Of a stretch of DNA of 64,000 nucleotides, positions 1,900-58,518 are shown in pieces. Both the position numbers and the translations under genes were made by a program. Source of the stretch: a phage; sequence record OZ335963.1; one strand, given 5' to 3'. Each line of letters begins with the position of its first letter. Positions within the stretch are counted from its first letter, which is position 1. Below the pieces are notes generated by a model. It was not told the DNA's origin, ran no database searches, and saw only the letters and a list, made by a program, of their open reading frames with translations.

Positions 1900-2556
1900 A
1901 TGGCAGCACCTAGAATATCATTTTCGCCCTCTGGTATTCTGTTTGGTGTTCTGGATCGCTTGTTCAAAGATAACGCTACCGGGAAGGTTCTTGCTTCCCG
2001 AGTAGCTGTCGTAATTCTTTTATTTATGATGGCGATTGTTTGGTATAGGGGAGATAGTTTCTTTGAGTACTATAAGCAATCAAAGTATGAAACATACAGT
2101 GAAATTATTGAAAAGGAAAGAAACGCACGCTTTGAATCTGTCGCCCTGGAACAACTCCAGATAGTTCATATATCATCTGAGGCAGACTTTAGTGTGGTGT
2201 ATTCTTTCCGCCCTAAAAACTTAAACTATTTTGTTGATATTATAGCATATGAAGGAAAATTACCTTCAACAATAAGTGAAAAATCACTTGGAGGATATCC
2301 TGTTGATAAAACTATGGATGAATATGCAGTTCATTTAAATGGACGTCATTATTATTCCAACTCAAAATTTGCTTTTTTACCAACCAAAAAGCCTACTCCC
2401 GAAATAAATTACATGTACAGTTGTCCATATTTTAATTTGGATAACATCTATGCTGGAACAATAACCATGTACTGGTATAGAAATGATCATATAAGTAATG
2501 ACCGCCTTGAATCAATATGTGCTCAGGCGGCCAGAATATTAGGAAGGGCTAAATAA
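1900..2556 (+). CDS. t: holin T
   Basis: 218-aa ORF matching T4 holin T almost residue-for-residue by recall (MAAPRISFSPS...); strong SD AAGGAGGG; follows gp38. Confidence 0.9.
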   Translation: MAAPRISFSPSGILFGVLDRLFKDNATGKVLASRVAVVILLFMMAIVWYRGDSFFEYYKQSKYETYSEIIEKERNARFESVALEQLQIVHISSEADFSVVYSFRPKNLNYFVDIIAYEGKLPSTISEKSLGGYPVDKTMDEYAVHLNGRHYYSNSKFAFLPTKKPTPEINYMYSCPYFNLDNIYAGTITMYWYRNDHISNDRLESICAQAARILGRAK

Positions 2557-5325: not shown

Positions 5326-5355
5326 ATAGTACCACAGTATGCTTTGGTTGTAAAC
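5326..5355 (-). promoter_or_regulatory. T4 early-type promoter upstream of motA (GTTTAC, 18-bp spacer, TACTAT)
   Basis: Minus-sense GTTTAC at 5350-5355 and TACTAT at 5326-5331 with A/T-rich upstream tract; same module recurs across the window. Confidence 0.55.
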
Positions 5356-15655: not shown

Positions 15656-16019
15656 ATTTAATGGCTTGAAGGAGACTAATAATTCTCAAGCGGCTTCTTT
15701 CATCTTTAACTGTAAAAGAAAGAGGATCGCCAGATTTCATAGTGATAGTACATTCAAAATCAAAATCTTCAGGAACTTCTTCGAAGAAATCAAATTCTTC
15801 ATCATAAATTAGAACATTACTCTGAAAACTGTGAAGAATTTTTCCATCATTTCCAGATGCTGTACTAATCATTGTAACATTATGGCCTTTCATATCTTCA
15901 ACGATAAATTCGCTTGTAGATATTACGGCATTAATAGAACCATTCCTATAAATAGAAGAAAGTAAATATTTCTTTTCTTCACCTTCACGAATGCGATATT
16001 TCTTACCGATTTTAAACAT
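15648..16019 (-). CDS. hypothetical protein, ~123 aa
   Basis: ORF; start chosen at first ATG (MFKIGKKY...). Confidence 0.45.
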   Translation of the reverse strand: MFKIGKKYRIREGEEKKYLLSSIYRNGSINAVISTSEFIVEDMKGHNVTMISTASGNDGKILHSFQSNVLIYDEEFDFFEEVPEDFDFECTITMKSGDPLSFTVKDERSRLRIISLLQAIKFE

Positions 16020-26034: not shown

Positions 26035-26280
26035 TTAACCACCAGTTACTTTCCACAAATCTTCATTTGCAGTAATCCATTCAGTACGTTGATTTTCTTC
26101 ATATACTGTAGTATATGCTGCTTTTTCTGAAGGGAATATCTGATAATGAGCGCCAGAAATTTTGTGAACGTCAGAATAAAGAGGGAAAGCTACAGAAATT
26201 TCTTTTCCTTCAATTTTCTTATTTCCATCTAATTTCTGCTCAAATGTTTTAATATTAACATAACCGCGAGTACTAGCCAT
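26035..26280 (-). CDS. soc: small outer capsid protein Soc
   Basis: 81-aa ORF matching T4 Soc by recall (MASTRGYVNIKTFEQKLDGNKKIEGKEISVAFPLY...). Confidence 0.9.
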   Translation of the reverse strand: MASTRGYVNIKTFEQKLDGNKKIEGKEISVAFPLYSDVHKISGAHYQIFPSEKAAYTTVYEENQRTEWITANEDLWKVTGG

Positions 26281-26352: not shown

Positions 26353-26871
26353 TTAATAACCTCGGTCTTGACGAGCGAAGTTTTCGGCATTTTTTAGATA
26401 ATAAAGTTTAAAGATTTCTTCAGCCGTAAGACCGAGACCTTGGAACATGTTCAGAACGAAATGAAGAATATCAATCATTTCGAATTTAATTTCCAACTGG
26501 TCTTGCGGAGACAAATCAGTAATTAGAGTTTCACGGCGTTCACCGTGTTGAGCTTTCCAAGGCTTCCATACAGCGGATGCATCTTTTTCACCATTGCTCA
26601 TACCACCAAGAGAAGTCAGAAGTTCGCGGAATTCATCATCAATATAATCTTTCTGATTACGCAACCAATCAACAACTTCGCCTGCGGTAGCCAAATCATC
26701 AGGATGACGGTTATATTCAGGTTTATCTTTAGCTAAACGAACCTGCAGAGATTTCTGCATATCAAGCATAACCTGCAGCGGGTCTTTTTCATCACCGAGA
26801 ATATCCCAGTATTCATTTTGAGCTTTATCAGCGCCTTCAATCAGTTGACTACATTCGTTGAAATGTGGCAT
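26353..26871 (-). CDS. 56: dCTP pyrophosphatase gp56 (MazG-like)
   Basis: 172-aa ORF at the gene 56 position; size and N-terminus as T4 gp56 by recall. Confidence 0.85.
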   Translation of the reverse strand: MPHFNECSQLIEGADKAQNEYWDILGDEKDPLQVMLDMQKSLQVRLAKDKPEYNRHPDDLATAGEVVDWLRNQKDYIDDEFRELLTSLGGMSNGEKDASAVWKPWKAQHGERRETLITDLSPQDQLEIKFEMIDILHFVLNMFQGLGLTAEEIFKLYYLKNAENFARQDRGY

Positions 26872-26872
26872 G

Positions 26873-27523
26873 TTATTTTTCCTTTCTTATGAAGTTTTCT
26901 ATCATATGTCTATAGCAGATATTAGGATAACCTGCCTTGACAGCTATTTTATTAAATTTTGTGCGCTTAGGTCTATTATTATAAACCCATAATTCATAAA
27001 GCGCATCATAACTATTCCATATTTCTCCTCGCCTAGGATTTGGTAAACCATATCGAGGCGAATTTTTACCGCTAAATCTTCCTTTTCGGGCTTTACTCAT
27101 ATTAGCCTTGGCTTCATCGGATATAATTTTACCTTTATGAGCTAGACGCATTTTGGCTTTAGTTTCTTCTGGAGTCTTTTTGCCTTTAATCCATGACGGC
27201 TTGCCATATCTAGGATTATTTTCACCCGAGAAAAGAACAGAGTTTTGGATTTTAAGGGTTTCTATTAATCTACTTGTTAATTTAACACCTTTATTATATC
27301 GCATTAAATTTACAGCATAATGCAATCCTCTCACATCTGGATATATTTTAGTTAATAATCTATGAGCTATAAAATGCTCACGCGCAGTTAACTCAACAAG
27401 ATTGTTTTTGCCATCTGCTCCTCCCATACATCTAGGAATTATATGATGGCGTTCTTTATATCCGCCAAGATGCCGGCATTTAGCTTTTGTAATTAAAGCC
27501 GAGTAAATTTTTTGGTAATTCAC
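26873..27523 (-). CDS. HNH homing endonuclease
   Basis: 216-aa ORF with HNH core (RHHIIPRCMGGADGKNNLVELTAREHFIAHR); GTG start with AAAGGA SD; stop 1 nt from gene 56 ATG. Confidence 0.75.
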   Translation of the reverse strand: MNYQKIYSALITKAKCRHLGGYKERHHIIPRCMGGADGKNNLVELTAREHFIAHRLLTKIYPDVRGLHYAVNLMRYNKGVKLTSRLIETLKIQNSVLFSGENNPRYGKPSWIKGKKTPEETKAKMRLAHKGKIISDEAKANMSKARKGRFSGKNSPRYGLPNPRRGEIWNSYDALYELWVYNNRPKRTKFNKIAVKAGYPNICYRHMIENFIRKEK

Positions 27524-27593
27524 ATATATCCTTTCAATTCATGGGTTAGTAGATTAATTATACAATAAATATATAAAGCAATAAGGAGGATAT

Positions 27594-27794
27594 ATGGTAC
27601 AAAAATTAATGGCACTTGTAGATGCCATAAAAGGTAATAAAAGACGTATAGCTTTTACTATTTCTGCTATGGTAGGAATTTTACTTTGGAATTTTGTTTT
27701 ATCGCCAGTTGCTATTGCTCATGGTGTTAGTATTCCAGTAATTACTCTCGATACATTCGTAGATTTAGCATTTGCTTTAGTTGGGTTAATTTAA
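27594..27794 (+). CDS. small hydrophobic protein, 66 aa, antisense to the early genes
   Basis: ATG preceded by AAGGAGG SD; fills the gap between HNH gene and gene 61; predicted TM segment. Confidence 0.4.
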   Translation: MVQKLMALVDAIKGNKRRIAFTISAMVGILLWNFVLSPVAIAHGVSIPVITLDTFVDLAFALVGLI

Positions 27795-28819
27795 ATCTTA
27801 GCATATTTAGATAGCCGCATTTTGGCCATCAACCCTTGGGCAATATTATTTTTCATATATTCCATAATTTGTTCAGGGGTTGCACCTTCCTTTCTAATCA
27901 TATCATTAACATCTTTTGATTTCCAGGGAGATTTGTCCCAAAACATAACCCTTTCTCCTGCATCAACCAATTTAGTCATTCGTTTAATAGTATCAGGGTG
28001 ACGAGGTTCATTATCTAAAACCCATACACGTCTATCTTTAAATGGAACAATTTCTAGGTCTAATTGACCACCCGTAATAGCTATACCATTTTCAATAAAA
28101 AGTGAATCTATAGGTCCTTCTAGAACATATACATCACCATCTTTGACCCGTTCAACGCCATAGATTTTTGTTGCCTCAGGATAAGCTTTGATGGTGATAT
28201 ATTTTTGGGGAGCATCTTTCTTTAATGCACGTCCTTGAAAAGACTCAGCTTTTCCGTTAGCATTATAAATTGGAATAACAAGACGAGGCTCAGGTATTTC
28301 CTTTTTATATGTTCCTGGCGCTATACTATTAACTAATTTAGGCCATTCGGTTGTAAACCAAAGATATTTCCATTTATCCTTTGGAATACAACGGGCTTTT
28401 ACATATTTTATAATTGGATGGTCTTCCGCCAGTTTATCTAATCTAATGCATGACGGAAGAGATTTAATTATTTTTTTCTCAGGTTGTTTAGGAAGTTCTT
28501 TAGGTTTTTCTACTGGACGACTTTTACCTTTTTCTTTTCTTATTTCAAAGATATACTCACGATATAAATCGGGTTCAAACTCCTTTAAATATATTCTGAT
28601 TGGTGCATGATAGTTACAGTTATAACAATGAATATTTCCTTCATTATTATCGCCATAATACCATCCACGAGCTTTATTTTGGTCGGTTTTTGAATCTCCA
28701 CAAACAGGGCATCTAAACCGCAATTTAAAAGTTGAACTATTATTTACTTGTGCGAATTTAGGTAAATGAGCCAATGCACGGTATGCAAACTCATTATCAA
28801 TCCAAGGTATTGATGACAT
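27791..28819 (-). CDS. 61: DNA primase gp61
   Basis: 342-aa ORF matching T4 gp61 by recall; zinc-binding CPVCGDS...CYNC motif. Confidence 0.9.
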   Translation of the reverse strand: MSSIPWIDNEFAYRALAHLPKFAQVNNSSTFKLRFRCPVCGDSKTDQNKARGWYYGDNNEGNIHCYNCNYHAPIRIYLKEFEPDLYREYIFEIRKEKGKSRPVEKPKELPKQPEKKIIKSLPSCIRLDKLAEDHPIIKYVKARCIPKDKWKYLWFTTEWPKLVNSIAPGTYKKEIPEPRLVIPIYNANGKAESFQGRALKKDAPQKYITIKAYPEATKIYGVERVKDGDVYVLEGPIDSLFIENGIAITGGQLDLEIVPFKDRRVWVLDNEPRHPDTIKRMTKLVDAGERVMFWDKSPWKSKDVNDMIRKEGATPEQIMEYMKNNIAQGLMAKMRLSKYAKI

Positions 28820-57516: not shown

Positions 57517-58518
57517 TTACTTAATTAACTGTAAAGCTTGTTCAAGACGATCCAGGCGATTAACAGATTCTTCCCAAATCCTTTTAGCCTGCTCATAATC
57601 TTTCTGCGCTTTATTAGAAATTTCTAGAGCTTCTTTATAAGCTTTTTCTAATGCAATAACTTCTGGACGAATTTCTACCGATTCAGGTGAATCATCAAGA
57701 TTATCCATTAGTTCCTCAGGGGTAGTTTCTTCTTTAGGAGTATTCACAATTTCCTCACATTTTTGTTGATAAATTTCTTTATCAGTCGGTGAGTACGCGC
57801 ACTTTACTTCACGAAGACTAACTACAATTTTGTATCCTTCCCAACCGCACATATTTTTAAAAGGATAAGTATAAATATTTTCTACTGTTTCCATACAAAG
57901 TAGTGCAGTCTCTAATTGACGAGTTATATCGCTAGCGATTGAGAAAAATTTATTAATGTTCTTTTGATTAGCTTCTGGTGTAAAAAATTCATAATTCACA
58001 AAAATAGCTGCTTTATTTTTATCAAGCTCATATTCTTTTATGATAATCATATCAGAAGCCCAAGGATGGATTTGACGATAATCGCCATAGCATAATTTAG
58101 AAGCTGATTTTAGAATTTGCTTCTTGAAAAGTCTAAAATTACTAATCCAACGACGAGTAAAAATATTCTCAGGGTCTTCTTTAATATTAAGATGATAAGA
58201 ATTAACATCACCGAACCAATTGTATCCTACTACATCTTTAGTTCGTTTAATTTCTTTCCCAAATTTACTAAGAATATCTTGATTAACTAAATATGAAAGA
58301 AGACGAGACCCTTTAAAGGTTTCCTTAATATCATCTTTATATTCGCGACTAGAAATTTTATGAACTTCATGAATAAATTTGTTGGAAGAAACAATACTTG
58401 CATCAGTATTATTGAGCCATTGATTGATAATGGAAATAACACTATTCTGACTAGACATAGGTTTAACTTTATCATCAATAACACTATTGAACGATTTGAT
58501 ATATTCGTTACGAGTCAT
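57517..58518 (-). CDS. paralog-array protein B, 333 aa, C-terminal coiled coil
   Basis: Start at MTRNEYIKSF after early promoter; motif RRWISNFRLFKKQILKSASKL shared with C and D. Confidence 0.55.
   Translation of the reverse strand: MTRNEYIKSFNSVIDDKVKPMSSQNSVISIINQWLNNTDASIVSSNKFIHEVHKISSREYKDDIKETFKGSRLLSYLVNQDILSKFGKEIKRTKDVVGYNWFGDVNSYHLNIKEDPENIFTRRWISNFRLFKKQILKSASKLCYGDYRQIHPWASDMIIIKEYELDKNKAAIFVNYEFFTPEANQKNINKFFSIASDITRQLETALLCMETVENIYTYPFKNMCGWEGYKIVVSLREVKCAYSPTDKEIYQQKCEEIVNTPKEETTPEELMDNLDDSPESVEIRPEVIALEKAYKEALEISNKAQKDYEQAKRIWEESVNRLDRLEQALQLIK

Follow-up and report, generated by a model that had tools for sequence, protein, structure and literature searches.

A Plus-Strand Gene Convergent with Gene 61 Is a Resident Gene of T-Even Phages and Is Predicted To Encode a Small Inner-Membrane Protein

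INTRODUCTION

Why does a single short open reading frame (ORF) read against a long series of genes on the opposite strand, and what, if anything, does it encode? This question is raised by positions 27594 to 27794 of a 64,000-nucleotide stretch of phage DNA (sequence record OZ335963.1; the whole of this stretch is called the window below), which comes from a T4-like phage of the genus Tequatrovirus. An earlier note on this DNA had described here a hydrophobic 66-amino-acid (aa) ORF with a strong Shine-Dalgarno (SD) site. It had proposed that the product might be a small membrane toxin or immunity-type protein delivered with a neighboring HNH element, or that the transcript might act as antisense to gene 61 or HNH mRNA.

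RESULTS

A single late-strand gene in a long early/middle gene block

The features of the locus are listed in Table 1. Both the 66-aa ORF and its AAGGAGG site are present as had been described, and so is the position of the ORF between the HNH gene and gene 61, where the two stop codons overlap by 4 nt. The ORF, whose product has the sequence MVQKLMALVDAIKGNKRRIAFTISAMVGILLWNFVLSPVAIAHGVSIPVITLDTFVDLAFALVGLI, lies in the 267 nt that separate the HNH gene from the primase gene, and the overlap takes the form of a TTTAAA in which positions 27791-27794 are common to both genes.

A mechanical ORF scan found that minus-strand ORFs fill the window from ~2.6 kb to 64 kb, and that over this range just one plus-strand ORF that begins with ATG and comprises 40 aa or more is situated in a gap between minus-strand ORFs, namely, the 66-aa ORF. 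The other plus-strand candidate, a 51-aa TTG ORF at 5344, has no SD site. The initial claim that this is the only well-supported plus-strand ORF within about 60 kb thus holds for ~2.6 to 64 kb, but not for the first 2.5 kb of the window, which does contain plus-strand late genes, including holin t (1900..2556). The region 27594..27794 is the one late-strand gene embedded in a long block of early/middle genes. Paralogs of the 66-aa protein were found neither in the window nor in 60 kb of T4.

Table 1. Features in and around the 66-aa ORF (window coordinates)
Feature	Coordinates	Strand	Remarks
soc	26035..26280	-	Neighborhood of the 66-aa ORF
Gene 56 (dCTPase)	26353..26871	-	Neighborhood of the 66-aa ORF
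HNH/NUMOD3 homing-endonuclease gene	26873..27523	-	Variable insert at the position of T4 dam
Putative MotA-type middle promoter of the HNH/56 unit	27557..27581	-	Read from the sequence
Putative late-promoter word AATAAATA	27564..27571	+	7/8 match to the T4 consensus TATAAATA; ends 22 nt before the ATG
Shine-Dalgarno site AAGGAGG	27583..27589	+	4 nt upstream of the ATG of the ORF
66-aa ORF	27594..27794 (stop included)	+	ATG start; predicted bitopic inner-membrane protein
Terminator-like hairpin ATGGCA-N8-TGCCAT plus T-run	27609..27628	-	Inside codons 6-12 of the ORF
Gene 61 (DNA primase)	27791..28819	-	Convergent with the 66-aa ORF; 4 nt in common

The reading frame is conserved and under purifying selection

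At the DNA level, the ORF occurs at 90-99% identity in 503 phage records. With the 66-aa protein as the query, tblastn retrieved 693 phage records, 686 of them with at least 80% query coverage; identities were 85-97% in Tequatrovirus and 44-52% in Mosigvirus and Gaprivervirus, and orthologs in other genera are ~17-50% identical. Use of the Jiaodavirus ortholog as the query added a further 169 records, including Moonvirus and one Karamvirus.

The pattern of substitution is that of a coding sequence. The values of dN/dS were 0.12-0.36 in 12 pairwise comparisons (Nei-Gojobori), synonymous sites are saturated between genera, and the variable alignment columns are distributed over codon positions 1, 2 and 3 as 44, 20 and 56. 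Five residues (W32, N33, P38, G44, and P48) are invariant in orthologs from seven genera, and GGAG(G) precedes the ATG in every ortholog examined. The earlier note had named the absence of a conserved frame in relatives as evidence against its proposals; what we found is a conserved frame, intact in all 18 of the 18 loci collected and with the low dN/dS values given above. The 66-aa ORF is a genuine protein-coding gene under purifying selection.

One could suppose that the frame is open by chance, within a spacer conserved for its regulatory elements, namely, the terminator of gene 61 and the promoters for the unit downstream. In favor of this view, the region does carry a middle promoter and, on the minus strand, a hairpin resembling a terminator, and nothing is annotated there in the T4 RefSeq record. 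We regard this explanation as extremely improbable, because the substitution pattern is frame specific across the ORF, the SD site and start are conserved, and the invariant residues persist across seven genera at 17-50% identity.

A narrow, phage-specific family

The family to which the ORF belongs is already known, being present as "hypothetical protein" in hundreds of GenBank records and collected in PHROG 2024. The window protein matches the PHROG 2024 profile with an E value of 8.8e-30 (residues 2-66 against positions 1-65 of 65), and the same profile is matched by 10 of 10 diverse orthologs. Its members include RB69ORF029w, VR7ORF033w, RB32ORF030w, and S16 gp16.1, all of them hypothetical proteins of T-even phages. 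The window protein shares with the PHROG 2024/RB69ORF029w family its length, its opposite-strand position between genes 56 and 61, and a single predicted transmembrane (TM) helix; we see no difference of substance, and the ORF is a member.

At least seven genera (Tequatrovirus, Mosigvirus, Gaprivervirus, Dhakavirus, Gelderlandvirus, Jiaodavirus, and Kanagawavirus) have the ORF in this slot, between genes 56 and 61 and on the opposite strand. Distant orthologs were located by using gene 61 as an anchor, which led to those of Dhakavirus MX01 (ORF29), Gelderlandvirus S16 (gp16.1), Jiaodavirus UTI-K4, and Kanagawavirus KLB31. The slot beside gene 61 does not contain the ORF in Karamvirus ZX13, Krischvirus kvi, Pseudotevenvirus GAP161, or Serratia phage 92A1. 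The slot in Karamvirus ZX13 is occupied by a same-strand 94-aa ORF, not by a small opposite-strand gene, and Karamvirus IME523 has a weak match adjoining its primase.

A profile search of 1.84 billion representative proteins gave only seven matches, all from the same phage family or its fragments. The family thus has no bacterial relatives and no wider superfamily in this collection, and is narrow and phage specific. Sequence searches of Pfam, NCBIfam, and PDB returned nothing meaningful and no family with a known function; the sole matches, which we rejected, were to DUF6124 (E value of 0.09), to YwcE in one member (0.02), and to an NqrE chain (0.35). Beyond the Tequatrovirus ortholog, a Foldseek search against viral models retrieved only two small proteins of T4-like phages, at ~25-27% identity.

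The gene is resident and is not cargo of the HNH element

Could the ORF have arrived with the neighboring homing-endonuclease gene, as a small toxin or immunity protein belonging to the HNH cassette? The two genes do adjoin each other in the window, in fPS-2, and in WL-3. In T4, the left neighbor of the ORF is dam, which takes the place of the HNH gene, and the window contains neither dam nor segF. The HNH gene is absent from that side of the ORF in Mosigvirus, Gaprivervirus, Dhakavirus, Gelderlandvirus, Jiaodavirus, and Kanagawavirus. In RB69, phage 55, VR7, S16, UTI-K4, and KLB31, there is no insert at all, and the ORF directly follows gene 56 or another gene. A homing endonuclease is found on the opposite side of the ORF in RZ and YenP8, where it separates the ORF from gene 61.

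The point at which the variable cassette ends can be placed precisely. Homology between the window and T4 (95.7%) begins exactly at 27583, which is the SD site, and the genomes are unrelated to the left of this point. Because the break falls outside the ORF, it is the HNH gene that varies, as an insert, next to a resident ORF. A comparison of phages with and without the HNH gene had been suggested as a check in the earlier note, and the ORF is kept in both kinds. Our results clearly establish that the 66-aa ORF is a resident gene of T-even phages (Tevenvirinae) and not HNH cargo. The proposal of delivery with the HNH element is refuted by dam in T4, by the phages such as RB69 and VR7 that have no HNH gene there, and by the boundary at 27583, and we consider membership of the product in the HNH cassette highly improbable.

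The T4 copy is missing from the reference annotation

The T4 ortholog lies at NC_000866 17738..17938 (plus strand). Its product and that of the window copy are distinguished by 6 residues, and the SD sites are identical. The gap between dam and gene 61 (NC_000866.4 17626..17934; 309 nt) is nevertheless empty in the RefSeq annotation despite the conserved 66-aa ORF. In a large protein collection, the exact T4 protein sequence is present only from raw-read assemblies, and all named members are called "hypothetical protein." Nolan et al. (2006) listed the RB69 copy with a predicted TM helix and treated RB69ORF029w as a novel ORF, because the T4 reference leaves its ortholog unannotated.

The omission has consequences for published data sets. 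In a T4 omics study, reads were mapped only to the RefSeq annotation, which omits the 66-aa gene; read or peptide counts made against NC_000866 cannot see a gene that this annotation leaves out. Full-text searching of the literature returned no transcript, Ribo-seq, proteomic, or genetic data on the ORF. Judged from the sequence, trypsin would yield a single convenient peptide, LMALVNAIK in T4 and LMALVDAIK in the window, so that failure to detect the protein by proteomics would carry little weight. The best-studied phage, T4, thus carries an overlooked gene that is under purifying selection in at least seven genera. Since the gene is conserved, unannotated in T4, and without an assigned function, it is a cheap and defined target for knockout and expression in a model phage.

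The product is predicted to be a bitopic inner-membrane protein

The TM helix that had been predicted for the product is supported by three approaches. The best 19-residue Kyte-Doolittle window has a value of 1.99 (residues 23-41). AlphaFold2 gave helices at residues 2-12, 16-42, and 52-63, with a mean pLDDT of 78.5. For the RB69 ortholog, RB69ORF029w, Nolan et al. (2006) reported that a helix was predicted by TMHMM at residues 21-41 and that SignalP was negative. Net charge is +4 on the N-terminal side of the helix and -2 on the C-terminal side, an asymmetry that holds across genera; the C-terminal side contains no basic residues, and the C terminus (...DLAFALVGLI) is hydrophobic.

Hydropathy, charge asymmetry, the AlphaFold2 model, and the published TMHMM and SignalP results together point to an N-in/C-out orientation with a short amphipathic periplasmic tail. 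We therefore predict a 66-residue bitopic inner-membrane protein. Its basic N-terminal amphipathic helix (residues 2-12, net charge of +4) would stay in the cytoplasm, one TM helix would span approximately residues 19-41, and an acidic amphipathic tail of ~25 residues would be exposed on the periplasmic face.

The same features could be read as a long cleavable Sec signal peptide comprising the N-terminal 42 residues, with cleavage at P38-x-A40-x-A42 / H43 and release of a 24-residue secreted or periplasmic peptide. A basic N-region, a helix-breaking Pro at -5, and small residues at -3 and -1 in most orthologs (AIA, ALA, AAS) are in agreement with such processing. However, the hydrophobic stretch of ~23 residues has the length of a membrane helix rather than of a signal h-region, position -3 is occupied by Leu in Mosigvirus and position -1 by Thr in Jiaodavirus, and SignalP was negative for RB69ORF029w (Nolan et al., 2006). 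Cleavage by this route is thus very unlikely.

A putative late promoter precedes the ORF

According to PMC1524935, the T4 late-promoter consensus TATAAATA is situated at -13 to -6, and its first T is poorly conserved in relatives. We infer from the position of the word AATAAATA upstream of the ORF (Table 1) that transcription would start near 27577-27578. The corresponding word is GATAAATA in T4, CATAAATA in Gaprivervirus and Kanagawavirus, and AATAAATA in Mosigvirus; Dhakavirus MX01 has a perfect TATAAATA upstream of the ORF, and Jiaodavirus has two copies of the promoter word. At the ORF, a perfect TATAAATA never occurs in Tequatrovirus, Mosigvirus, or Gaprivervirus, and the upstream region of S16 has only TTAAATA and no ATAAATA.

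Of 7 genus representatives, 6 have ATAAATA within the 45 nt that precede the ATG, and none of 20,000 composition-matched shuffles reached at least 5 representatives, although the seven are not fully independent because their upstream regions are homologous. The ATAAATA is also retained across the 27583 breakpoint, in two unrelated upstream contexts (HNH type and dam type). On both strands of the window, such words are avoided: TATAAATA was observed 3 times against 10.1 expected, and VATAAATA was observed 7 times against 28.1 expected, with every shuffle containing at least 7. Two of these rare copies immediately precede late genes, one (1874-1881) the gene t and the other (26318-26311) soc. 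Plus-strand copies of TATAAATA at 15947-15954 and 57870-57877 were rejected as gene promoters, as they lie inside minus-strand genes and have no credible ORF behind them. These two copies could be antisense late transcript starts or chance survivors.

The ORF is most likely transcribed from the late (clockwise) strand, with the word at 27564-27571 serving as a gp55-type late promoter. The short leader would carry a strong SD site. Folding of the 5' end of the plus-strand mRNA revealed no unusual structure (z = -0.5). Speaking against a late promoter, the word is so near the SD site in some genera that a leader of only ~10 nt would result, and the late promoters predicted by Nolan et al. (2006) include none on the plus strand in the vicinity of RB69ORF029w. 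Of the proposals in the earlier note, that of a small hydrophobic membrane protein, encoded by a genuine gene on the plus strand whose ribosome-binding site is strong, is supported.

Minus-strand elements and possible antisense effects

Two putative minus-strand elements overlap or adjoin the start of the ORF. The predicted middle promoter consists of a MotA box, TTGCTTTA (27581..27574), an 11-nt spacer, and TATAAT (27562..27557). It is back-to-back with the plus-strand AATAAATA, and the late word is enclosed in it as its spacer. At the matching place, the fPS-2 record carries the annotation "predicted middle promoter." The hairpin within the ORF has a predicted stability of -8.2 kcal/mol (z = -1.9) and coincides with a terminator annotated in the fPS-2 record. 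It is specific to Tequatrovirus, being conserved in T4 with changes in the loop and absent from other genera, and it is likely the end of gene 61 transcripts.

No intrinsic terminator was found on the plus strand for 4.2 kb after the ORF, and the late transcript would therefore run antisense into gene 61. A search of the ORF region against Rfam gave no match on either strand. Of the two antisense targets proposed in the earlier note, HNH mRNA is impossible, because the two promoters are back-to-back and divergent; the absence of a terminator for 4.2 kb leaves gene 61 mRNA as a possible one.

This raises the possibility that the functional product is an RNA, namely, a late antisense transcript that would pair with gene 61 mRNA at its 3' end and shut off primase late in infection, the ORF being secondary. 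In five genera, the convergent ORF and gene 61 overlap by 4 nt, and plus-strand termination is absent as described above. In addition, the minus-strand transcript probably reaches the hairpin, so that most of the ORF would be covered by both RNAs. Selection nevertheless acts on the protein, as seen in the low dN/dS, the retained amino acid motif, and the saturated synonymous sites. Several genera also have no such overlap with gene 61, and the geometry is not constant, with a 206-nt gap between the ORF and gene 61 in VR7 and a whole homing-endonuclease gene between them in RZ and YenP8, and neither an Rfam match nor an unusually stable fold was obtained. An RNA as the main product is accordingly quite unlikely in our judgment. 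Antisense action on gene 61 is possible as a side effect of a protein-coding transcript, and it is not needed to explain conservation, because conservation is at the protein level.

DISCUSSION

A proposed role at the envelope late in infection

Our preferred explanation, which we consider probable, is that the ORF is a resident gene for a small protein of the inner membrane that is made late in infection. More speculatively, this protein would work through a partner in the membrane and would modulate an event at the envelope during late infection. Since no family of known function matches, this functional guess is based solely on the size, topology, and timing. The invariant residues W32, N33, P38, G44, and P48 are positioned in and just after the predicted membrane helix, and we infer that this W-N...P...G...P face would dock onto the partner. 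Which event docking would modulate can only be guessed at; lysis timing, lysis inhibition, and superinfection control are candidates. We think that the protein would neither form holes nor act as a stand-alone toxin.

A bolder reading, which we consider rather unlikely, is that T4 carries an overlooked late gene, conserved in the subfamily, whose product would be an unrecognized component of a late envelope process. The protein might take part in lysis inhibition as an additional factor, contribute to the control of superinfection, or regulate or inhibit some membrane protein of the host, and its unterminated transcript could also silence primase mRNA by antisense pairing.

A direct lysis protein, whether holin, antiholin, or other, is a related possibility. 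The protein is small, has a predicted TM helix, and is probably expressed late, and one UniRef entry names the phage OE5505 ortholog "Holin." In a single comparison, the membrane helix also weakly resembled the signal-anchor of T4 RI (8 of 20 residues identical; E value of 0.009). The "Holin" name, however, apparently comes from automatic annotation, and no holin family in Pfam or PHROGs was matched. The C terminus is hydrophobic rather than charged and hydrophilic. No endolysin or other lysis gene adjoins the ORF, whose neighbors are the primase, HNH, and dCTPase genes, and holin t is 25 kb away. A search for RI with the family profile gave no match, and the FVLSP stretch common to the window protein and RI is not conserved within PHROG 2024. 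Homology to RI was rejected, because the likeness is weak and the family profile gives no support. A direct function in lysis is thus unlikely.

Comparison with known systems

The T4 antiholin RI resembles the window protein in being small, with an N-terminal hydrophobic anchor of weak similarity followed by a short periplasmic part. It differs in that its periplasmic domain is globular and comprises ~70 residues, compared with ~25 residues in the window protein, and there is no significant homology between the two. The RI gene is located elsewhere in the genome and on the minus strand, unlike the plus-strand 66-aa ORF. Phage holins in general are likewise small membrane proteins with at least one TM domain, and the window protein resembles them in this respect and in its probable late expression. 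It lacks their charged C-terminal tail, their lysis-cassette context, and a match to their profiles, and these phages already possess holin T.

A comparison can also be made with type I toxin-antitoxin systems, in which a small hydrophobic toxin is repressed by an overlapping antisense RNA. The peptide is small and hydrophobic, and a gene 61 read-through RNA, if it ends at the hairpin at 27609-27628, would be antisense to the ORF.

AcrZ, MgtS, and KdpF are small bacterial regulators of membrane proteins. Like the window protein, they comprise fewer than 70 residues and a single helix, with conserved polar or helix-breaking residues in the membrane span. They have no sequence relationship to the 66-aa protein, and the analogy is one of mechanism only. 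The shared pattern suggests, by this analogy, that the product of the 66-aa ORF may act by binding a larger membrane protein.
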